This document shows, one piece after another, positions 10,833-21,895 of a DNA stretch of 32,637 nucleotides. Position numbers and translations under genes: made by a program. Every line of letters starts with the position of its first letter. Position 1 is the first letter of the stretch. A model generated the notes under the pieces. The model was not told the origin of the DNA, made no database searches, and was given only the letters and a program-made list of their open reading frames with translations. Origin of the DNA: Candidatus Dormiibacterota bacterium (GTDB lineage: Bacteria; Chloroflexota; Dormibacteria; Dormibacterales; Dormibacteraceae); the NCBI GenBank assembly GCA_036505515.1, contig DASXTG010000142.1, forward strand, positions 1-32,637. The letters are read 5' to 3'.

Positions 10833-10856
10833 GCTCGTTGACGGCGAGGTAGTTTT

Positions 10857-10889
10857 GGGCCGGAGGGCGTGCCGCCGCTCCTCCGGCCC
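10857..10889. terminator. GC-rich hairpin between convergent qor-like and flotillin genes (bidirectional terminator candidate)
   Basis: GGGCCGGAGG (10857-10866) pairs perfectly with CCTCCGGCCC (10880-10889), with a 13-nt loop. No U-tract follows, as is usual for high-GC actinobacterial terminators. Confidence 0.35.
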
Positions 10890-10916
10890 TGACTGGCGCC
10901 GAAATCAGTTGGCCCG

Positions 10917-12878
10917 TCAGCTCTTGGCTTTGGCCTCGCCGCTGCCGTTGAGGGACCGCATGAACGCAGCGGCCAGCCCCTCTATGGCGCCGCCGCCGGT
11001 GACGAGCACCTCCGGCATGACGTCTATGTTGCCCTCCGAGACCGCATTGGCGATGGCGACCGCCGCCGTCGGCCCGGAGCCGAGCGCCTGCACCTGCGCC
11101 TCGTATCCCCTCGCCCGAGCCAGGCCGAGCGCTTCGACCGCCGCGGCGTCGCCCAGGCCGATGTTGCGCCGACGCGAACCCTCGGCCGCACCTGTGAGCT
11201 CAACGAACGCTGCCTCGCCACCGGCCTCTGCCTTGCGGGCGTCGGCTCGAGCGCGGTTGATGTCGACGGACACCTGCGCCTTGGCAAGCTCGGCCTGCAT
11301 ATCGGCTGTGCCGCGCTGCTTCTCGAGGTCGATACGGACGGTCTGAGCGTCCTTCTGCTGCTCGTAGGTCGCCTTCTCCTGGTTGGCGATCTCGCGTCGC
11401 GTGAGCACGCTGACGAGCTCCTCGGGGAACTCCACGTCCTGGATGTACACGCCTCGCGTCTCCACTTCATAGGCGCCCAGGTAGCGTGAGATCGCGTCGA
11501 AAGCCGCGGCCTGAACCGCATCGCGCGTCTCGATGAAGCGCACCGCCTCCAAACCCTGGAGCGTGTTGCGGAAGTGGTTGCCGACCGCCGCCTGCAGCAC
11601 CTCGTTGACCAGGTTCTGCATCGAGCCGACCATTGATATGACCTTTGGGGCCTTGGTGTCAGGCACGTGGATCTGGACCTGCAGGTCGATCTTGAAGATG
11701 AACCCCTCGCGGCTCTTGCCCTCGATGGGACTCAGCTGTGCGTCAAGGTTGTGCGCGACCGAGCTCGCCTCCGCCCAGTTGAGGGTGAGGATGAATGTGG
11801 GCACCCTCTCCGCGGCGTAGATGCGCGGGTTGAGCGGGTATTTGCCGGTGCGCAGCGCCTCGCGCCAGATGCCGCGATGGCCGGGCTGAACGATAGAACC
11901 GAACTTGAATTCGGGCCCGGACGTGTCCAGCGTGGGCAGACCCACGTAGCTCTTGATGACGGCGACCTCGCCCTGATTTACGACCAGCATCGACGCCAGC
12001 TCGACCCGCACGAGGAACGGGTTCAACAGGTAGGCGCCGTAGAGCAGCGGGTCGTGTTGCAAGCCGATCCGGCCGCCGCTGTCCATGAAGGCCTGGAAGT
12101 CCTGGTAGTTGTTGTGAAGCTGGTTCTTGGCTCCCAACAGAGCCTCGATCAGCTCCGAATCGGTGATGTGCTGCTGCGCCTCCAGCACCTCGATGTCGCT
12201 GAAGCCGCCGATACGGCCGGCGATGTCGGCCGGCGGGAGCGGATCGCCTTCGAGCGTGGTGACGATGCCAACCACGTCCTGGTCGCCATCCGGCGCGATG
12301 ACAGTGACCTGGAGCTGCTCAGGCTTGAGGCCGAACGAAGCCGGTGCCAGCGGTCCGCGCAACAGGACGTGCGGATCGATGGGCAGGCCGTAGGCCTTGG
12401 TGGCCGTGATGACCAGGAACGCAACCGGGTGAATGGGGGCGAGCGTGCCGGGCGGCAGCACCGGGCGCTGCACGCCCTTCTGGCCGTGACCGCGCACGAA
12501 GCCGTGGAGATCGGTGAAGTTGCCGAACTCTTGCCGGTAGGCGGCGGACTTGGCGCCAGTCGGAAGCGGATCGCCGATCTGTGAGATGACCACGCCTATC
12601 TCGCCGGCCGGGACCTGGACCCAGGGGTACTTCACGACCGAATAGACCGGCCAGAGCTTGAAGCGGAGCCCGGGCATCAGGAGCTCGGACTGGTAGCCTG
12701 CTTCGCCGTCGAATGCGATCGGAGTGTCGGTGGTGTTGTGCTTGGACGACACTCGCTTGATCACGAGCCCGACCTGGGCGGGCCCGATCGCCACGATCGA
12801 CCTGGCGATCACGATGAACGCCGCAAAGACGACGAGTGCGGCGAGAAGGGACAGCAGCAACGTAAGCAGATCGCCCAT
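10917..12878 (-). CDS. flotillin-like SPFH/Band-7 family protein
   Basis: 653 aa. N-terminal TM/hairpin (LLTLLLSLLAALVVFAAFIVIA). An SPFH-like domain follows. A long Ala/Glu/Arg-rich predicted coiled coil (ELAKAQVSVDINRARADARKAEAGGEAA...) follows, then a C-terminal VTGGG region resembling the FloT/YqiK terminus. Confidence 0.65.
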   Translation of the reverse strand: MGDLLTLLLSLLAALVVFAAFIVIARSIVAIGPAQVGLVIKRVSSKHNTTDTPIAFDGEAGYQSELLMPGLRFKLWPVYSVVKYPWVQVPAGEIGVVISQIGDPLPTGAKSAAYRQEFGNFTDLHGFVRGHGQKGVQRPVLPPGTLAPIHPVAFLVITATKAYGLPIDPHVLLRGPLAPASFGLKPEQLQVTVIAPDGDQDVVGIVTTLEGDPLPPADIAGRIGGFSDIEVLEAQQHITDSELIEALLGAKNQLHNNYQDFQAFMDSGGRIGLQHDPLLYGAYLLNPFLVRVELASMLVVNQGEVAVIKSYVGLPTLDTSGPEFKFGSIVQPGHRGIWREALRTGKYPLNPRIYAAERVPTFILTLNWAEASSVAHNLDAQLSPIEGKSREGFIFKIDLQVQIHVPDTKAPKVISMVGSMQNLVNEVLQAAVGNHFRNTLQGLEAVRFIETRDAVQAAAFDAISRYLGAYEVETRGVYIQDVEFPEELVSVLTRREIANQEKATYEQQKDAQTVRIDLEKQRGTADMQAELAKAQVSVDINRARADARKAEAGGEAAFVELTGAAEGSRRRNIGLGDAAAVEALGLARARGYEAQVQALGSGPTAAVAIANAVSEGNIDVMPEVLVTGGGAIEGLAAAFMRSLNGSGEAKAKS

Positions 12879-13070
12879 GTTCCTGCCTCGAGGGCTCGAA
12901 CCTTGCCCTTGAACTTACGGGGTTCGCCCTATTCGAGCGATTGCTTATTTCTTACCCATTTTCGGCCCAAACCATGTCTGAAAACGCCTGTTGCTCGGAA
13001 CAGAGGGACGCATTCCGGTGGTTCTAATTCGCCTACGCATCCGGTTTCGTATGCCTGTTTTGGGAGAGCT

Positions 13071-14009
13071 TTGAAGCGCGCTGATCTCGTCAAGGTGGCT
13101 GTGGCGTTGCCCGTGGTGTGGGTGACCATCGGCTCGGCGTTCGTCGCCCTGAAGATGGGCGTCGCCAACGTCCCACCCTTCCTCTTCTCAGGGTCTCGCT
13201 TCCTGATCGTCGGCGCGCTCCTGCTCGCGTGGTGCGCATGGCGCGTGCAGGGCCGCCTGGCTTTGCGGCGTGTCGACCTGTTGATCGCGGCGGCAACCGG
13301 CGCCGGCATGATCATGGCCGGTCAGGGCGGCGCATCCTGGGCATCGCAGTACCTCGACCCTGGAATCGTGGCCGTGCTCAGCTCCACGATGCCGATCTGG
13401 GCGGTTGTGCTTTCGGTCGCGCTTGTGCACGCGCGTCCGGCACCACTCGCGATGATCGGGCTCGTTGCGGGCTTTGGCGGGGTGGCGCTGCTCGCCTGGC
13501 CCACGGGCGGTTCGGGAATCGCATTCCTACCTGCCCTGGTGACAGCTATCGGGGCCGTCGGCTGGGGTGCCGGCTCTCTGCTGGTCAGCCGATCGGAGCT
13601 GACACGACGGCCTGTTCTGATGACCGCCCTCCAAATGCTCGTCGGAGGGGGCCTCCAGTTTGCCCTCGGCCTGGTTGGAGGCGAAGCCGGTGCCTTGAGC
13701 GCGCCACACCTAGCGGCGGCCCTGCCCGTGTTCGCCTACCTCATCGTCGTCCCGGGCCTGGTCGGCTTTCCGCTGCTGACGTGGCTGTTCTCCAAGGTCG
13801 AGCTGCAGATCGTGAACACGACCGCCTACGTAGTCCCGGTAGTTGCTCTGCTGCTCGGCTGGTTGATCCTGGGCGACGCCATCACGCTGCGCACGCTTGT
13901 ATGCGTGGTGGTCACCCTGGTCGGGGTCAGCTTGATCGTGTTCAGCTCTCGCCGCCGGACCACGCAGCCGCGAACTCAGGCGGCTGAGCTGGCGGAAGAA
14001 GCCGCCTGA
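13071..14009 (+). CDS. DMT-superfamily EamA-like transporter
   Basis: 10 predicted TMs in two EamA-like halves. Start is set at TTG 13071, preceded by GGGAGAG (13062-13068). The longer 12738 ORF extends into AT-richer intergenic DNA and is rejected. Confidence 0.75.
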   Translation: MKRADLVKVAVALPVVWVTIGSAFVALKMGVANVPPFLFSGSRFLIVGALLLAWCAWRVQGRLALRRVDLLIAAATGAGMIMAGQGGASWASQYLDPGIVAVLSSTMPIWAVVLSVALVHARPAPLAMIGLVAGFGGVALLAWPTGGSGIAFLPALVTAIGAVGWGAGSLLVSRSELTRRPVLMTALQMLVGGGLQFALGLVGGEAGALSAPHLAAALPVFAYLIVVPGLVGFPLLTWLFSKVELQIVNTTAYVVPVVALLLGWLILGDAITLRTLVCVVVTLVGVSLIVFSSRRRTTQPRTQAAELAEEAA

Positions 14010-14016
14010 GCTTCGG

Positions 14017-15318
14017 TCAGTCGCGCCAGAGCTGCTGGGCGCGCACGCCCAGGCCGTGCACGACGGCGGTGAAGGCGTCGCGCGCCACCAGGCGCTCGGC
14101 GCCGAACATCTCGGCGAGATCGCGACGAAAAGCCGGAATGTAGGCGGAGCCGCCGGTCGTGAGGACCCGATCGACGTCACCCGGCTCCACACCTGCTCCA
14201 TGCAGCCCTCGCTCGATCGCGTCGCGGACAAGATCGAGCTCCGGGCGAATCATCGATTCGAATGCTGAGCGGCGCACGGTGACCTGGAGCTTGAGCGGAA
14301 CGTACTCGAGCTCGGTCGCGTCCGAGACCGAAAGCGCAATCTTGGCCGCCTCTATCGACTTGTAGAAGTTGTACGCGTGGCCCTCGTAGAGAAGGGAGCT
14401 CACCAGCTGAGCCGCTTGACCGCCGATGCGAGCAAGGATCGCCGGAATGCCCGGGTCGGCCATCAGCAGCCGGACAGAGCTCGCGGTGCGCAGCTCGTTG
14501 AAAAGCCAGCTGGGCAGAACATCCAGCCCCAGGCCCGGGCCGACGACGGTTTCGAATATCACGCCATCCAGGAGCTCGCCTCCGACGGCGACACCGGACA
14601 TGGCGGCGATACGCGACGCGCCGTCGCGCGAGTCCATGACAGCGACGTCGAATGTCCCGCCGCCAAAGTCCACGGCCACTTCGACGCCGTGGTGCTCGGG
14701 CTCACCTATGACTGCCGCGGTGGGCTCCGGAAGGAATGCGATCTCGTCGAAGCCCGACTCCAACGCTGCCTGCTCCAGGCGCCGCAGAGCTTCCGACTGC
14801 GACTTCGCGAGATGCTGAACGTCCGCCCCCGCGAAGTTGACCGGGTGCCCGAGCACGACCCGGGTCGAGGCCCTGTCGACTGCGGCGTCAGCTTCGTCCT
14901 TCAGGCGCTTGAGCACCACTCCGACCAGCGATCCCACGCTGAAGTCGGTCGCCCACGAATTGGTGCCGGCGAATCCAAGCTTTGCCAGCTCGTACTTGAC
15001 ACCGGACAAGAGCCGAGCGTCGTTGCAGCCGCCACCCTTTCGATACTGGCGGCAGTCGGTGTCCCACCCGTACGGCGCCAGCGGGCATTTCCAGCAGTCG
15101 GTTTTCTCGTGTCCTGACTGGAGGAACGTCCTGACGGCCTCCTCGCCGGCTCTTCGCCGGCCCTGCCGGTGCAGGTACACGAAGGACGGCAGCGTCGTGG
15201 AGATGCGCGACCGTCCGATCGGGACCACTTCCACGCGATCGGGATACGCAATGGAGACCGCGCTGTTGCTCGTCCCGAAGTCGATGCCGTAGCCGAGCGG
15301 AACGGTCCGTGATGTCAC
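14017..15318 (-). CDS. Hsp70-family nucleotide-binding-domain protein (YegD-like, no substrate-binding domain) with Cys4 insertion
   Basis: Phosphate-1 motif IDFGTSNSAVS, phosphate-2 motif VDFGGGTFDVAV and adenosine motif LTTGGSAYIPAFRR of actin/Hsp70 ATPases. Its 433 aa cover the NBD only. Insert CWKCPLAPYGWDTDCRQYRKGGGC carries 4 Cys. Confidence 0.75.
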   Translation of the reverse strand: MTSRTVPLGYGIDFGTSNSAVSIAYPDRVEVVPIGRSRISTTLPSFVYLHRQGRRRAGEEAVRTFLQSGHEKTDCWKCPLAPYGWDTDCRQYRKGGGCNDARLLSGVKYELAKLGFAGTNSWATDFSVGSLVGVVLKRLKDEADAAVDRASTRVVLGHPVNFAGADVQHLAKSQSEALRRLEQAALESGFDEIAFLPEPTAAVIGEPEHHGVEVAVDFGGGTFDVAVMDSRDGASRIAAMSGVAVGGELLDGVIFETVVGPGLGLDVLPSWLFNELRTASSVRLLMADPGIPAILARIGGQAAQLVSSLLYEGHAYNFYKSIEAAKIALSVSDATELEYVPLKLQVTVRRSAFESMIRPELDLVRDAIERGLHGAGVEPGDVDRVLTTGGSAYIPAFRRDLAEMFGAERLVARDAFTAVVHGLGVRAQQLWRD

Positions 15319-15323
15319 CAGCG

Positions 15324-16010
15324 TTAGCTCTTTGGGGATGGGAACCGAGGCGCCAGGCTCGGGTCATCACGGCCGAACGACCTGCGGCCCCAGATGCCCA
15401 TCAGGACGATGGCGAGGATGAATGCGCCCGCAGCTGTCAGGACCACCCCCAAGGGTGGCGTCGCAAGAGCCACCGCGGCCAGGGCCCCGATGGCGCCGGC
15501 GACAGCCGCGACGATCACCGACAGCATGCCCGGCAGGGTCTGAAGAACGTGGAGAGTCGAGCCCAGCCCGGCACTGGCTCTGATATCGACGCCAAGCGTT
15601 CGGAGTGCGCCGGGCATGTCGTCGTATGGGCTCGAAACGAAGTTGGGCTCCAGCTCGGGATGCAGCTCGAGGTACGCGTGTCGGAGCCGGTTCATTCCGA
15701 TCACCAAGCGGTAGTCGTCGCGGTTGAGGCTCATCAGCCGGCCGATGGTGGCAATCCCGGCGAAGAGCACGACGAAGAGGGTGAGGATGGCGATAGAGAT
15801 GAAGGTCGGGCCGAAGTGGTCAGCCTGCGCGACGAGTGCGAGGGCGATCACGGCGCCGGACAGGATGGCCAGGAACATGCTCACGCGGCCCAGGGACTCG
15901 GTGTAGGTCAGCGAACGAGTCGCGAGCAGGCTCCAGTGTTCAGTCGCGAGTATCTGCAGCTTGGTGGCCGCCCCAGGCTCGCCGCGAGCAGGCGGAATAT
16001 CGATCGACAT
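15324..16010 (-). CDS. hypothetical integral membrane protein (4 predicted TMs)
   Basis: 228 aa with high GC3 and four hydrophobic helices. It ends 6 nt before the Hsp70-like gene starts, which suggests an operon. No recognisable family. Confidence 0.5.
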   Translation of the reverse strand: MSIDIPPARGEPGAATKLQILATEHWSLLATRSLTYTESLGRVSMFLAILSGAVIALALVAQADHFGPTFISIAILTLFVVLFAGIATIGRLMSLNRDDYRLVIGMNRLRHAYLELHPELEPNFVSSPYDDMPGALRTLGVDIRASAGLGSTLHVLQTLPGMLSVIVAAVAGAIGALAAVALATPPLGVVLTAAGAFILAIVLMGIWGRRSFGRDDPSLAPRFPSPKS

Positions 16011-16037
16011 CGCTCACCTCCCATGACAAACGAGCCC

Positions 16038-16544
16038 TCATTGCCCCTCGATCAAGCATGTCGTGGTGCCATGCGCCAGTATCTTGCCGGTCCGCTCCGC
16101 GATGAGCCGGCCGTCAGCGGTGGCGACCCTGCGGCCGCGGTGGATGACGGTGGCTTCGCAGCGGACGGGCCCCGTATCGGCGGTCACCGGGCGGACAAAA
16201 TTCACCTTCGTCTCGAGGGTGGTGTAGCGCTCGCCATGGGCCAGGGTGGTGTGGACTGCGCAGCCCAGGGCGGAATCGAGCAACGTCATCGCGAACCCGC
16301 CGTGCACGACACCGAGCGGGTTGTACAGAAACTCGCCGGCCTCCCCGACGAAGACGGCCCTACCTTCCTCAGCCTCGCTGCCGGTGAATCCCATGGTCAC
16401 TGTGATCGGCGGCGGCGGCACCCGGCCATCGAACATGGCGCGGATGAACTCGAGGCCGCTCATCTCCGCAGCCATTGCGAGCCCGCGCGCGGGGTCCTCC
16501 CAGCTCACGGTTCGAGTTCGAGTGCTGGCCCTTGTTTCCGTCAT
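16038..16544 (-). CDS. PaaI-family (hotdog-fold) thioesterase
   Basis: 168 aa. Block LYNPLGVVHGGFAMTLLDSALGCAV...ATVIHRGRRVA is typical of the PaaI/YbgC 'uncharacterized domain 1' thioesterases. Confidence 0.8.
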   Translation of the reverse strand: MTETRASTRTRTVSWEDPARGLAMAAEMSGLEFIRAMFDGRVPPPPITVTMGFTGSEAEEGRAVFVGEAGEFLYNPLGVVHGGFAMTLLDSALGCAVHTTLAHGERYTTLETKVNFVRPVTADTGPVRCEATVIHRGRRVATADGRLIAERTGKILAHGTTTCLIEGQ

Positions 16545-16590
16545 GCCTTTCTACCGTTCGCGTGCAGAAGGAGAATTATCGACTGCAGCC

Positions 16591-17040
16591 GTGCCGCAAC
16601 GCCTGACTATTCGCCCCGCAACCGAAGCGGACCAGCAGACGATCCGGCGCCTCATCAGGGAGGCAAACCTCAACCCCATGAGCCTGAACTGGCCGCATTT
16701 CGTGGTCGCCGAGGATGACGGTGCGATCGTCGGGGTGGGCCAGGTCAAGCCTCACGGCGACGGCAGCCGCGAGCTGGCATCGATCGCGGTCGTACCCGCG
16801 CGCCGGGGCCAGGGCATCGGGCGTGCAGTGATTGAGGCGCTTCTCGCGCGTGAGCGCGGCGGCGTCCTTTTTCTGACCTGCCGGCGTGAGCTCGAGGGTT
16901 ACTACGATAGCTTCGGGTTCCGGCGCCTCGAACGGGCTGAGTATCCGCCCTACTTTCGGCGCCTCATGCCGCTGGTCAACCTCGTAGCTCGGACTTTCGG
17001 GGAGAGGATCCTGGTGATGCGGCGGGAGGCTGCGCTCTAG
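16591..17040 (+). CDS. GNAT family N-acetyltransferase
   Basis: Acetyl-CoA-binding motif AVVPARRGQGIGRAVIEALL. GTG start at 16591 with AAGGAGAA upstream, though the spacer is long. Longer ORF from 16246 is rejected. Confidence 0.7.
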   Translation: MPQRLTIRPATEADQQTIRRLIREANLNPMSLNWPHFVVAEDDGAIVGVGQVKPHGDGSRELASIAVVPARRGQGIGRAVIEALLARERGGVLFLTCRRELEGYYDSFGFRRLERAEYPPYFRRLMPLVNLVARTFGERILVMRREAAL

Positions 17041-17049
17041 AGAGCCGGC

Positions 17050-18054
17050 TCAGGCGGGCTTGAGTTCGTATCGCAATCCGAGGCGAGGAAATACCTCTTC
17101 GGCGAAGCGGCTGATCACGCCGCCTTCGAATGCGTTCGGAACGTTGACGATAACGTATTCAATCCCGGCCTCGACGTACTCGCCAATGATCTCCGCAATG
17201 CGCTCGGCATCGCCGAACCACGGGTACCAGCCGCGGACGAAATCCTCGTCTTTGCCCGTCCGGCGCGCAGTCTCTGTGACGACGCGGTCGACCTCACGCC
17301 GATCGCCAAGGACGGTGTAGAACTCGATCGTTTTCAGCACCGAGTCGTAGTCGCGCCCGACTGCATCGCAGTGCGCGCGCAGCACGTCCAGCTTGTGACG
17401 CACGGTCGCCACGTCAGCGTTGAAGTTGCAGGCGTCGCCGTATTGAGCAACCAGCTTCAGGGTCACTTTCTCGCCGGCGCCACCGATCCAGATCGGTGGA
17501 TGCGGCTTCTGCACCGGCTTGGGTTCATTGATGGCACCGCGAAGGTGGTAGTAGCGGCCATCGAACTCGGCCTGCTCTTGTGTCCACATCGCCTTGAAGA
17601 CCTGCAACGCCTCTCGCAGCATGCGCAGGCGTTCGGGCGTCTCCGGGTATTCGTAGCCGTAGGCCTCCCACTCATGCTGATACCAGCCGGCGCCGATGCC
17701 GAAGATCAATCGCCCATGGCTCATGACATCGACGCAGCTCGCCATCTTGGCGAGGAGTGACGGCGGCCGGTAGCCATTGCATGTGACCATCTGACCGAGC
17801 CGAATCGTGCTCGTGTCGCGAGCCAGGGCCGCCATCGACGTCCAGCACTCGAAAGTGGTCTCCAACCGAGGCGCGGGCACCGTGTGAAAGTGGTCGAAGA
17901 CCCAGATCGCGTCGAACCCGGCCTTCTCGGCCTCCACGGCGCAGCGGCTCATGGTCTCGAACTTTTCGGTCGGATCGGGCACATCGGCCAGGTCCATCCG
18001 CCAGCCCTGAGGTACGAAGACTCCGAGCTTCAGGTCTGCCAAGCTGTCCCCCAC
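17050..18054 (-). CDS. LLM-class F420-dependent oxidoreductase (luciferase-like monooxygenase family)
   Basis: 334 aa. TIM-barrel LLM signature (FDAIWVFDHFH ... RLIFGIGAGW ... PIWIGG) typical of F420-dependent LLM enzymes of Actinobacteria. Confidence 0.85.
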   Translation of the reverse strand: MGDSLADLKLGVFVPQGWRMDLADVPDPTEKFETMSRCAVEAEKAGFDAIWVFDHFHTVPAPRLETTFECWTSMAALARDTSTIRLGQMVTCNGYRPPSLLAKMASCVDVMSHGRLIFGIGAGWYQHEWEAYGYEYPETPERLRMLREALQVFKAMWTQEQAEFDGRYYHLRGAINEPKPVQKPHPPIWIGGAGEKVTLKLVAQYGDACNFNADVATVRHKLDVLRAHCDAVGRDYDSVLKTIEFYTVLGDRREVDRVVTETARRTGKDEDFVRGWYPWFGDAERIAEIIGEYVEAGIEYVIVNVPNAFEGGVISRFAEEVFPRLGLRYELKPA

Positions 18055-18833: not shown

Positions 18834-20417
18834 TCAGGCGGCCCCGAGCGCGGCGGTCACCAGGTCCGCAGCGCGCTCTCCAATCATGATGGTGGCGGCG
18901 TTGGTGTTGCCCGCGACGATCAAAGGCATGATCGAGGCGTCGGCGACGCGGAGGCGAGCAACACCTTTGACTCGAAGCTGGGCGTCGACAACGCCGTCGG
19001 GCCCCGGCGCCATCCTGCAGGTCCCGGTCGGATGCCAAAGCGTGCCCGAGTAGGCGCGGACGTAGTCTGCAAGCGCCTGACGCCCGGTAACGCTCGCGCC
19101 TGGAGCCAGCTCCTCGCCTCGGAAGTCGTCCAACGCCCGGTCGTGAGCGAGCTCTCGAACCAGCTCGACTGCCGCGACGAGCGCGTCTACGTCGGCTTGC
19201 GCTGAGAGGTAATCCGGATCGAGCAGCGCCGTTACGCTGGGATCGGCGGAACGGAGCCTGATCGCGCCGGAGCTCCGCGGCTGAATCAGAACAGGAGCGA
19301 ACGTGAAGCCGGGACCATCTCGGTCTTTGTCCGGCGGGACGAACTTGAGGCCGCCGAATTTGATCTGGATGTCTGGCGGGCCGTCGGCGGCGGCACCGGC
19401 GGTCCGCAGGAAAAGACCAGTCTCCGCGATGAGAGTCGGCAGCTCGGGTTGAGGCTGCCGGTTCATGTAGCCGACCCCCAGGATCAGGTGGTCTTGAAGG
19501 CCTTTACCCACCGCCGGGGCGTCGACTAACACCTTCAGGCCGTGCTCGCCCAGTTCGGCGGCGCCGCCGACTCCCGACAACATCAGCAGCTTGGGGGACT
19601 CGAAGGTCCCAGCGCAGATCACTACCTCGTGGTCCGCCCGTGCCCGCGCTGCGTGACCGTCCTGCATGTATTCGACCCCGACTGCGCGGCCGGCCTCGAT
19701 CAAGACCCGGCTGACGACGGCGTAGCTCTCTAGCGCCAGCTGTGGCGAATCGAGGATCGGACGGAGATAGGCTTCTGCGGTGCTCGCGCGCCGGTGGTGG
19801 CGGGTCTTGGTCGCCTGGTAGTAGAAGACAGCCCCCTCCTGGCGCTCGGCGTTGTAATCGAAGCCGGAGCCCAGGTCGTCGAACCCGTTCGCTGCGGCGG
19901 CTGGAAACAAGCGCTCGGAGACCGGGGTGGGTGTGTCGTGGACGATGACGCTCAGCGGGCCGCCACTCCCGCGATAATCGGATGCGCCGCCGTCGAAGTC
20001 CTCCATCCGCCGGAAGAGCGGCAGCACATCCGCATAGGCCCAGCCGGGGTTGCCGGCCGCCGCCCAGCGGTCGTAGTCACGGCGGTTGCCGCGCACGTGC
20101 ACCATCGCGTTGACCGAGCTGCAGCCGCCCCAGACCTTGCCACGCATGACCGCGATGGTGCGGCCTCCCATTCCTCGCTGCGGCTCGCTCACGTAGCCCC
20201 AGTCGAGCTCACCTGGAGCCCACAGCGAGAGCGTGTCGAGCAGCTGCTCGCTGTGGATCTGGGGCTTGTCGTCGGGACCGCCCGCCTCAAGCAGCAGGAC
20301 GCGAACGCCCGCATTCACCAGCCGGTGTGTCAGCGCGCAGCCTGCGGAGCCGGCGCCGACGACGATTACGTCGTAGGTCTTGGCCAGAATTACCCACCCG
20401 CCTGCTCGGTCGCCCAC
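18834..20417 (-). CDS. GMC family oxidoreductase (choline dehydrogenase-like) #1
   Basis: N-terminal FAD Rossmann YDVIVVGAGSAGCALTHRL and the GMC signature regions. C-terminal His active-site region (LWHPTGTCRMAP). GTG start, overlapping the 3' end of GMC #2 by 28 nt. Confidence 0.85.
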   Translation of the reverse strand: MGDRAGGWVILAKTYDVIVVGAGSAGCALTHRLVNAGVRVLLLEAGGPDDKPQIHSEQLLDTLSLWAPGELDWGYVSEPQRGMGGRTIAVMRGKVWGGCSSVNAMVHVRGNRRDYDRWAAAGNPGWAYADVLPLFRRMEDFDGGASDYRGSGGPLSVIVHDTPTPVSERLFPAAAANGFDDLGSGFDYNAERQEGAVFYYQATKTRHHRRASTAEAYLRPILDSPQLALESYAVVSRVLIEAGRAVGVEYMQDGHAARARADHEVVICAGTFESPKLLMLSGVGGAAELGEHGLKVLVDAPAVGKGLQDHLILGVGYMNRQPQPELPTLIAETGLFLRTAGAAADGPPDIQIKFGGLKFVPPDKDRDGPGFTFAPVLIQPRSSGAIRLRSADPSVTALLDPDYLSAQADVDALVAAVELVRELAHDRALDDFRGEELAPGASVTGRQALADYVRAYSGTLWHPTGTCRMAPGPDGVVDAQLRVKGVARLRVADASIMPLIVAGNTNAATIMIGERAADLVTAALGAA

Positions 20418-21895
20418 GCCGCCGCACGCTCCGCGACCATCACGATCGCGGCATGGCAGTTGCCCGACGGCAGCGTGGGGAGCACAGAGCCGTCGGCGAT
20501 TCGAAGCCCCTCGACGCCGCGAACCCGCAGCTGTGGATCGACAACAGCGAGGTCGTCGATGCCCATCTTGCAGGACCCCGCGTAATGCCAGTACGAGTCG
20601 ACGCTGCCGCGAAGGAACGTCCGCAGCTCGTCGTCGCTCTTGGCCTGTGCGTCAGGATAGACCTCGCCATAGGTGGCCTCCTGCATGGTTTTCGTGGCGA
20701 TGATCCCGCGTGCGACGTGCACACCCTCCACCATCCGGTCCAGGTCGCTGGTCTCAGAAAAATAGTTGGCATCGATCAGCGCCTGGTCTTGGGGATTGGG
20801 GCTCGCCAGCCGAACCGATCCCCGCGACAGCGGGCGGACCAGGCCGGTGATGATCGCAGCCAGGCTCCAGTCCTGCAGCGTGGGCACGATGTCGGAGGGC
20901 GCGTGGACGAACGCTAGCTGCAGGTCAGGGCCAGGCCACCCAGCGCTCGACTTCGCGAACAGGCACGCCTCGGAGAGGTTGATCTGGCCGCGCGGCAACT
21001 CCTGCCGGAACTTGACCACCGGTCCGACGACCAGGGCGTGGTCGTGGAAGTTGGCGCCGACGCCAGGCAGGTCCACCCGTACATCGACGCCGACATCGCG
21101 GAGGTGCCCGGCGGACCCGATGCCCGAAAGCATCAGCAGCTTCGGCGATCCGACTCCGCCTGCGGTGACGAAGACCTCGCGCTCGGCGCGGGCCTCTTCC
21201 ACCTTGCCATCGCGAACGAACGCGACCCCGATGCAGCGTCCTCGCTCCAGCAGTAACTTGGTCGCAGTCGCCCTTGTCTGCAGGGTGACGCCTGGGCGTG
21301 CGGCAGCAGGCTCCAGGTAGGCGCGGCGGCAGCTGTAGCGCTTGCCGTCCCTCATGTTGAGGTGGTGCCAGCCGGCGCCGATCATGTTGGGACCGTTGAA
21401 GTCGTCGGTGGCCGGATGGCCGGCCTCCCGGCAGGCTTCGAGAAAGACCTGTGATGCCGGATTGACCGGCATCGTCTGCGCGCTGACAACGTCGAGCGGA
21501 CCGTCTTTGCCGGCGGTGGGATTGGACTCGTCCTGCTGGTTCTCGAGCTTCTGGAACCAGGGCAGCACCTCCGCGTACGACCAACCGAGGGCTCCGTCAT
21601 ATGCCCAGTTGTCGAAATCGGAGGCGTGCCCGCGGATGTGAATCGTGTGGTAGAGGTTGCTCGACCCGCCGATCAGGCGCCCGCTCGGGTGCTTGATCCT
21701 GCGATTGCCGATGTGGGCTTGGGGAACGCTCTCGTACTTCCAGTCGATGTCGGAGCCGAGCAAGGTCGGCCACTTATACGCGATGTCGACATTGGCGGGA
21801 ACTTCGCCGGTGCCTGCCTCCAGGACCAGGACATTGGACCCGCCTTCGGAAAGGCGGTACGCGAGGGTGGAGCCGGCCGATCCGGCCCCGACCAC
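20390..21895 (-). CDS. GMC family oxidoreductase #2
   Basis: GAGSAGSTLAYRL Rossmann motif. GMC signature. C-terminal YWHYAGSCKMG active-site block. The annotated GTG start truncates the usual YDFIVVGAG N-terminus (see findings). Confidence 0.85.
   Translation of the reverse strand: MVGAGSAGSTLAYRLSEGGSNVLVLEAGTGEVPANVDIAYKWPTLLGSDIDWKYESVPQAHIGNRRIKHPSGRLIGGSSNLYHTIHIRGHASDFDNWAYDGALGWSYAEVLPWFQKLENQQDESNPTAGKDGPLDVVSAQTMPVNPASQVFLEACREAGHPATDDFNGPNMIGAGWHHLNMRDGKRYSCRRAYLEPAAARPGVTLQTRATATKLLLERGRCIGVAFVRDGKVEEARAEREVFVTAGGVGSPKLLMLSGIGSAGHLRDVGVDVRVDLPGVGANFHDHALVVGPVVKFRQELPRGQINLSEACLFAKSSAGWPGPDLQLAFVHAPSDIVPTLQDWSLAAIITGLVRPLSRGSVRLASPNPQDQALIDANYFSETSDLDRMVEGVHVARGIIATKTMQEATYGEVYPDAQAKSDDELRTFLRGSVDSYWHYAGSCKMGIDDLAVVDPQLRVRGVEGLRIADGSVLPTLPSGNCHAAIVMVAERAAAWATEQAGG

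Follow-up and report, generated by a model that had tools for sequence, protein, structure and literature searches.

A 32,637-nt stretch of DNA from a Candidatus Dormiibacterota bacterium (contig DASXTG010000142.1, positions 1-32,637, GenBank assembly GCA_036505515.1; this whole stretch is referred to as the window) carries three consecutive minus-strand genes, which encode a 168-aa hotdog-fold thioesterase-like protein (16038..16544), a 228-aa membrane protein termed TM228 (15324..16010), and a 433-aa protein related to the nucleotide-binding domain (NBD) of Hsp70 (14017..15318, with a GTG start). Our analysis indicates that these genes, each conserved independently in Dormibacterota, are likely to have become neighbours only recently and in a single lineage, and that the Hsp70-like gene represents a conserved and usually stand-alone gene for an NBD-only ATPase. 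Judged from its sequence, the 433-aa protein is a Cys4 variant, previously undefined, of the YegD-type NBD-only Hsp70s. An initial annotation of the window had proposed that thioesterase, membrane protein, and ATPase form an undescribed three-gene module; in all likelihood there is no such module, and a false lead is thereby removed, while a large and strictly conserved Cys4 subfamily, with sister clades that are hard-wired to SNF2 helicases, is now defined.

Distribution of the trio among Dormibacterota

The genomic context of the Hsp70-like gene was compared across 55 species-level Dormibacterota loci (60-80% identity in the Hsp70-like protein), 47 of which include at least 1.5 kb of upstream sequence; these data, like all sequence data used here, are metagenomic. 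When the 55 loci were searched by tblastn with TM228, the hotdog protein, and six further neighbours from the window (E <= 1e-5, with inspection to E < 1), neither a TM228 gene nor a hotdog gene was found near the Hsp70-like gene at any of them, and nothing credible appeared at E < 1; the sole matches were two weak and distant ones to other window neighbours. The Hsp70-like gene is present in at least 55 species-level Dormibacterota genomes, where it usually stands alone.

Other genes accompany it in these relatives. YceI and MarR genes lie upstream at 19 loci, with a distance between MarR and the Hsp70-like gene that is mostly ~450-650 nt (range 48-649), and 15 Dormibacterota species carry upstream, on the same strand, a gene for a 132-aa stand-alone cNMP-binding protein, separated from the Hsp70-like gene by 3-59 nt in 12 of the 15 (L026:5558-5956; also L027, L029-L032, L034-L036, L039, L044, L045, L049, L053, and L055). 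This cNMP-binding protein, which is absent from the window, may be a genuine operon partner of the Hsp70-like gene in that sublineage. The rest of the 55 loci show yet other upstream genes.

The trio itself is confined to four contigs with ~85% DNA identity to the window and 92% identity in the Hsp70-like protein, i.e., the three genes do not co-occur in relatives beyond this range. The syntenic block in these contigs consists of the hotdog, TM228, and Hsp70-like genes followed by a convergent EamA gene, with breakpoints at ~16577 and 12996 of the window. The gap between the TM228 and Hsp70-like genes measures 24 nt in the 92% relatives as compared to 5 nt in the window. The hotdog gene is undamaged in L057 and L059, and in L058 it is complete up to the contig end; in L056, a single metagenomic contig, it is a pseudogene with residues 54-116 deleted and the frame shifted (L056:848-1190, corresponding to window 16198-16577). 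The Hsp70-like protein encoded by L056 is identical to that of the other three related contigs. Homologues of TM228 also occur in unrelated surroundings: those with 76-84% identity are flanked by PALP, glyoxalase-like, response regulator and LuxR-type ATPase, MFS, or unknown genes, and an Hsp70-like or hotdog gene was never found beside them. Because the adjacency is limited to one narrow soil Dormibacterota lineage, we do not regard the trio as a functional module; a lack of co-occurrence in relatives is also the outcome that the initial annotation had named as refuting its proposal.

These relatives also bear on the identity of the host, which had been taken for an actinobacterium. The organism is a Candidatus Dormiibacterota bacterium, and relatives of the Hsp70-like protein, like those of TM228, are found in metagenome-assembled genomes of Candidatus Dormiibacterota/Dormibacteraeota (AD3), including older bins named 'Chloroflexi bacterium CF_'; a few short contigs among them look mis-binned.

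Coding evidence and organization of the three genes

All three genes are real open reading frames (ORFs) at the minus-strand positions given above, as first annotated, and share a clear coding signature in which GC content at the third codon position (0.81-0.83) exceeds that at the first, which in turn exceeds that at the second; long ORFs on the opposite strand show the reversed pattern and are thus shadow ORFs. The hotdog and TM228 genes are separated by 27 nt, as previously reported, while the gap between the TM228 and Hsp70-like genes was found to be 5 nt rather than 6 nt (junction TAA-cgctg-GTG). The 27-nt gap, which follows the TGA stop of the hotdog gene, contains the Shine-Dalgarno-like sequence GGGAGGTGA (16014..16022, minus strand; read directly from the sequence) 3 nt 5' of the TM228 ATG. 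A consensus scan of positions 13800-17200 identified no promoter-like sites and no intergenic terminators; the one terminator-like site in this region lies inside the hotdog gene, and a single site is within chance expectation. Co-transcription of the trio in the window strain is plausible on the basis of the short gaps and the strong predicted ribosome-binding site. Short-gap neighbours on the same strand are common in bacteria, and adjacency alone is therefore not above chance.

The Hsp70-like protein consists of a nucleotide-binding domain

The 433-aa protein matches PF00012 (E 5e-22), and both the match, which ends near position 372 of the 599-position model, and the chain itself, which ends at residue 433 directly after the C-terminal helix of the NBD, stop with this domain. 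The motifs DFGTSNS at residue 13 (phosphate-1), LPEPTAA at 196, DFGGGTFD at 217 (phosphate-2), and TGGSAYIP at 388 (adenosine) are present, consistent with the original description of an NBD-only protein with all three NBD motifs. The catalytic-site residues D13, K108, E198, D217, T222, and D224 are invariant in an alignment of 37 sequences, and Lys108 aligns with the Lys that is catalytic in DnaK. The AlphaFold2 model has a predicted local distance difference test score (pLDDT) of 92.4 and a predicted template modelling score (pTM) of 0.90, and the structure search that had been suggested for this protein supported the assignment, since the top 50 Foldseek matches in the PDB were all NBDs of Hsp70, DnaK, or BiP (probability 1.0, TM-score 0.6-0.75, ~20% identity). 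An interdomain linker, a substrate-binding beta-basket, and a lid are all missing from the 433-aa protein. Together, these comparisons show that the protein consists of the Hsp70/actin-fold NBD only, with an intact ATP site and no substrate-binding domain (SBD). With neither a linker nor a peptide-binding domain, it therefore cannot work as a chaperone that clamps peptides in the canonical way.

Comparison to characterized families places the protein outside both the canonical chaperones and the YegD orthologues. As compared to the DnaK/Hsp70 NBD (PF00012; PDB entries 7rax, 2v7y, and 5obw), it shares the fold, the phosphate-1, phosphate-2, and adenosine motifs, and equivalents of the catalytic Asp, Lys, and Glu; it differs by the missing linker, beta-basket, and lid, by an identity of ~20%, and by an additional insert with four Cys residues. 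The DnaK and HscA equivalogs score 80-90 bits against it, with cutoffs of 620-820 bits, and a canonical Hsp70 chaperone (DnaK, HscA, or HscC) was thus ruled out on the basis of domain content and scores far under the cutoffs. The label 'YegD-like' holds for the architecture and not for orthology. Escherichia coli YegD (NF008673/PRK11678) aligns with the protein end to end (residues 11-432 with 4-450, E 6e-21), both proteins consist of the NBD only and have the same terminal helix, and both carry an insert in lobe IB at the same columns, before the strand with the catalytic Lys. Orthology was ruled out by a score of 106 bits against the YegD equivalog NF008673 (cutoff 331) and an identity of 24%; in addition, the YegD insert is longer and free of Cys, and the gene neighbourhood differs. 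The function of YegD is unknown (PMC13580251, PMC13232886), and the E. coli protein is still described only as 'presumably an HSP70 chaperone' (PMC13232886).

A conserved Cys4 insert in lobe IB

The Hsp70-like protein contains exactly four Cys residues, all within 24 residues of each other, in the arrangement C75-x2-C78-x10-C89-x8-C98; the chance of finding four random positions within such a span is P ~ 6e-4. The insert that carries them comprises codons 71-100 (15019..15108, minus strand) and follows the helix that comes after strand 3, ahead of the strand with Lys108. We assign it to lobe IB because it is sited just before this strand, which carries the counterpart of the DnaK catalytic Lys. 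DnaK has no such insert (profile positions 62-122 are unmatched in the alignment), and in YegD the site is occupied by the longer, Cys-free insert described above.

Conservation of the cluster, the variability of which would have been expected for a non-structural insert, is nearly complete among close relatives and extends well into the wider family. Among 120 Dormibacterota cluster representatives, C75, C78, and C98 are kept in all 120 and C89 in 119, and conservation of region 71-125 (0.957, as compared to a protein mean of 0.857) is level with that of the ATP-binding motifs. An exhaustive search of 1.84 billion cluster representatives at 50% identity retrieved 164 relatives at E <= 1e-30, 107 of them full-length; ~40 of these 107, with identities down to ~30%, keep a pattern of C-x2-C, a variable loop, and C-x8-10-C, whereas the insert is missing or Cys-free in others. 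The 37-sequence alignment, which reaches down to 28% identity, shows no exception at C75, C78, or C89 and a conservation of at least 90% at C98.

The four Cys probably bind a metal, most likely Zn2+, with an Fe-S cluster as the alternative. Although the inserted Cys4 cluster was thus correctly recognized, its interpretation as a possible zinc ribbon is not established, given that a zinc ribbon would have two CxxC-type knuckles on beta-hairpins around one Zn, while the putative ligand pattern comprises only one CxxC knuckle (C75-C78) followed by C89-x8-C98, with a spacing of ~5-26 residues between the first pair and the third Cys in relatives.

Longer members of the wider family (P0259, P0283, P0298, and P0325) have low-complexity C-terminal tails past the NBD, in which occasional Cys-rich (CxxC...HxC, CPFC...C) or helix-turn-helix-like segments can be seen by eye; Pfam searches on the C-terminal tails of longer members returned nothing except HSP70, MreB, and FtsA. 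Plasmid collections yielded only generic matches to the Hsp70-like family (26-29% identity), and phage collections yielded none.

Cys4 relatives coupled to SNF2 helicases

Five Cys4 relatives that are 40-50% identical to the window protein (P0244, P0246, P0250, P0456, and the protein encoded at L073) share a different genomic context. In all five, a gene for a SNF2-family helicase of ~1000 aa is located directly upstream, and its stop overlaps the start of the Hsp70-like gene by 4 nt. These helicases, which are 38-52% identical to each other, contain ResIII, SNF2-rel, and Helicase_C domains as well as a weak match to RapA_C, and their best matches in PADLOC are BrxHI and DrmD. The SNF2/Hsp70-NBD cassettes are located at L067:7-6747, L069:326-4683, L068:1-4998, L070:2-2082, L073:2-2040, L157:3975-12310, and L158:3975-12520. 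Downstream of the pair, L067 and L068 encode a Pro/Ala-rich disordered protein of 155-175 aa and a helicase-nuclease that combines UvrD and PD-(D/E)xK domains, while L157 and L158, the two contigs with the P0456 cassette, carry a convergent superfamily 1 helicase and place the cassette among GmrSD, BrxL, a protein kinase, a group II intron reverse transcriptase, and transposases, i.e., in a defence-island setting. PADLOC has no model for the Hsp70-like protein and the small protein of the cassette, and our literature search found no paper on a connection of Hsp70-like proteins with either SNF2 cassettes or Dormibacterota, and none that describes such a cassette; the one mention of Hsp70 in a HEPN paper has no bearing on it. 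We consider the SNF2/Hsp70-NBD pair a candidate for an undescribed defence or genome-maintenance cassette.

The helicase is not part of the context of the window protein or its nearest relatives: the window contains no SNF2 homologue, and helicase neighbours are absent from the Dormibacterota contexts as well as from those of the relatives with 60% and 53% identity. In a rough neighbour-joining tree (without support values), the Dormibacterota clade groups with the relatives at 60% and 53% identity in a single solo subclade, which is nested within the Cys4 radiation, while SNF2-linked members are placed elsewhere, with a few insert-less members nested among them. A search of PADLOC-DB 2.0 with the three window proteins and a neighbouring SPFH protein gave no matches at E <= 0.01. 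A further scan of metagenomes with the Cys4 alignment relied on generic patterns (e.g., DFGGGTFD), and 75 of its 80 loci were Hsp70-like genes with only 24-33% identity; its informative loci were L073-L076 and L103 only.

A partly comparable arrangement has been described for CnuD, an Hsp70-like protein found in CoCoNuT Type III restriction systems (PMC11090510). CnuD resembles the SNF2-coupled sister clades in that an Hsp70-like ATPase module is embedded in a defence-type operon with helicases and nucleases. It differs, as compared by description only, in having an NBD/SBD unit, degenerate Walker-like motifs, and an association with McrBC-type GTPases (PMC11090510), whereas the family of the window protein is NBD-only, with intact motifs, a Cys4 insert, and no McrBC nearby.

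Possible partners of the Hsp70-like protein

A mechanism for the Hsp70-like protein can be outlined on the basis of these features. A bound metal would rigidify the protruding lobe-IB knuckle, which would then serve as a partner-docking surface, and binding and hydrolysis of ATP would open and close the actin-fold cleft and hence gate the interaction with the partner. The partner is speculative and could be a nucleic-acid motor or a nucleic-acid-bound complex. Because members of paralogous Cys4 clades show translational coupling to SNF2 helicases, we rate such a partner slightly above a membrane protein or an acyl-CoA pathway. The SNF2 linkage thus offers a concrete hypothesis for the target of the ATPase, i.e., a metal-stabilised docking knuckle that acts together with a nucleic-acid motor.

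A number of observations weigh against the interpretation favoured here, i.e., a recent juxtaposition that involves a stand-alone ATPase with a putative nucleic-acid partner. The link to nucleic acids is an extrapolation from paralogues with 40-50% identity, and no helicase is found in the window or in the contexts of the solo clade; the genome scan relied on query-derived peptide patterns and covered a single genome for each species, which makes for a biased sample; and the 5-nt gap between the TM228 and Hsp70-like genes, which fits translational coupling, is compatible with a lineage-specific functional link between the two.

A more specific version of the nucleic-acid hypothesis holds that the window gene is a stand-alone descendant of a SNF2-coupled conflict or genome-maintenance cassette and that its product continues to work on a nucleic-acid motor whose gene lies at another place in the genome. 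Such a descent is suggested by five independent Cys4 relatives in which the SNF2 stop overlaps their start, by the presence of the P0456 cassette, on two contigs, among GmrSD, BrxL, a group II intron, and transposases, and by the nested position of the Dormibacterota clade in the Cys4 radiation; however, the lack of any SNF2 match in the window and of any helicase in the Dormibacterota contexts or beside the 60% and 53% relatives, the lack of PADLOC matches to the window proteins, and a neighbour-joining tree without bootstrap values lead us to consider it unlikely. In its most general form, which we regard as equally doubtful, the hypothesis would assign the Cys4 Hsp70-NBD family as a whole to a SNF2-helicase cassette not yet described, as its dedicated ATPase or adaptor subunit. 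Dormibacterota would then have fixed a helicase-uncoupled copy as a core gene, and the lobe-IB metal knuckle would contact the motor or nucleic acid. If the protein does prove to be a cassette subunit, this would provide a first mechanistic handle on NBD-only Hsp70s. The window locus itself adds little, as it represents one member of the Cys4 subfamily; the SNF2 cassette, located outside the window, is of higher interest.

The main alternative with regard to the partner is that the Hsp70-like protein could be a co-chaperone of DnaK, which would enhance nucleotide exchange or disaggregation through contacts between NBDs, as Hsp110 does for Hsp70. While such a function has been put forward for DnaK derivatives of the NBD-only kind as a whole, by analogy to Hsp110 (PMC13580251), and would fit a conserved single-copy gene of housekeeping type whose ATP site is intact, the proposal is itself an analogy, no linkage to dnaK, dnaJ, or grpE was seen in any context, and neither the Cys4 knuckle nor the SNF2 coupling of the sister clades would be explained. 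We judge this role improbable, to much the same degree as descent from a SNF2 cassette.

Still less probable is a functional pair restricted to this lineage, in which TM228 would bring the soluble ATPase to the membrane, with the stoichiometry of the two proteins held by translational coupling. Short gaps (5 nt in the window, 24 nt in the relatives with 92% identity) and the retention of the pair by each of the four related contigs, including the one with the hotdog pseudogene, would be expected for such a pair, but the difference between these two spacings also means that the junction itself is not conserved, and both families are highly conserved and widespread separately and are never adjacent outside this clade. 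Least of all do we expect a single module made up of thioesterase, membrane protein, and Hsp70-NBD ATPase, e.g., for an ATP-driven membrane-associated acyl or lipid process, since the co-directional arrangement with gaps of 27 and 5 nt and the same gene order in three close-relative contigs are outweighed by the absence of the trio from all 55 related loci, by the unrelated neighbours of TM228 homologues, by the hotdog pseudogene in a contig with an identical Hsp70-like protein, and by the lack of any co-occurrence past ~85% DNA identity.

Membrane protein TM228

TM228 matches no family in Pfam, NCBIfam, or PADLOC, and a relaxed Pfam search (E <= 5) returned only sub-threshold hydrophobic noise (e.g., Holin-X and 8xMP). 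Hydropathy places hydrophobic segments at residues ~43-62, 68-91, 158-183, and 186-208, i.e., two hairpins that would provide four transmembrane helices, in agreement with the initial description of an unclassified protein with four such helices; an N-terminal amphipathic helix is conserved as well. The family is large (4539 matches), and the best 120 of these matches, with 75-99% identity, share many invariant positions. The AlphaFold2 model is all-helical and of low confidence (pLDDT 62, pTM 0.49).

Homologues of TM228 in other genomes are repeatedly located near a gene for a polytopic membrane protein of 332-340 aa, either upstream or downstream (L153:2420-3439, L064:2903-3925, L065:297-1319, and L156:3002-4000). 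These polytopic proteins are 75-80% identical to each other, belong to no Pfam family, and have no homologue in the window.

Hotdog thioesterase

The 168-aa protein matches PF03061 (E 3e-15; 56.7 bits, cutoff 20.6) and TIGR00369 (73.2 bits, cutoff 36.6), and its core, NPLGVVHGG...LLDSALG (HGG...D), aligns with 3nwz and 2pim, which along with 1zki are the nearest solved chains and represent uncharacterised PaaI-like proteins. By these matches, the gene is classified as encoding a hotdog-fold (4HBT/TIGR00369-type) acyl-CoA thioesterase-like protein. The name 'PaaI thioesterase' is thus appropriate with regard to the fold and too specific with regard to PaaI itself. While the protein resembles the PaaI/TIGR00369 thioesterases (2pim, 1zki, and 3nwz) in exceeding the TIGR00369 cutoff and in its aligned core, it reaches only 26.3 bits against the PaaI equivalog TIGR02286 (cutoff 118.9), and no genes of the phenylacetate (paa) pathway were found among the scanned neighbours, which encode a GNAT protein, a luciferase-like monooxygenase, and GMC oxidoreductases; PaaI orthology was ruled out on these grounds.

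The divergent GNAT ORF (ending at 17040) and the hotdog gene (starting at 16544) have almost no spacer between them if the longest ORFs are used (window 16540-16600), and the true start of one or both genes is probably internal, e.g., at Met24 of the hotdog protein.

Neighbouring genes

Farther upstream of the trio, the luciferase-like monooxygenase gene (17050-18054) adjoins tandem genes for GMC-family FAD oxidoreductases (18834-20417 and 20390-21895, minus strand), which overlap by 28 nt as longest ORFs. In L056, a Fic-domain gene and small ORFs are located upstream of the hotdog pseudogene, where the window has the GNAT gene.

On the other side of the trio, an EamA gene is convergent with the Hsp70-like gene (window 13071-14009, plus strand). 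An EamA transporter gene is also found just downstream of the Hsp70-like gene in 21 of the 55 Dormibacterota loci (e.g., L005:4012-5262, minus strand), mostly in convergent orientation and usually followed by an adenylate/guanylate cyclase gene (16 loci). A convergent EamA gene was considered as a conserved partner and rejected, as the EamA protein of the window shows no significant similarity to that of the MarR contexts; its presence in both contexts is probably a coincidence, the family being common.

A 653-aa SPFH/Band_7 (flotillin-like) protein is encoded at 10917-12878 (minus strand) on a 2.16-kb segment (window 10833-12995). This segment is missing in all three ~85% contigs that span the corresponding point, where EamA abuts an ADH_zinc_N gene, and hence was either inserted specifically in the window strain or lost from its relatives.

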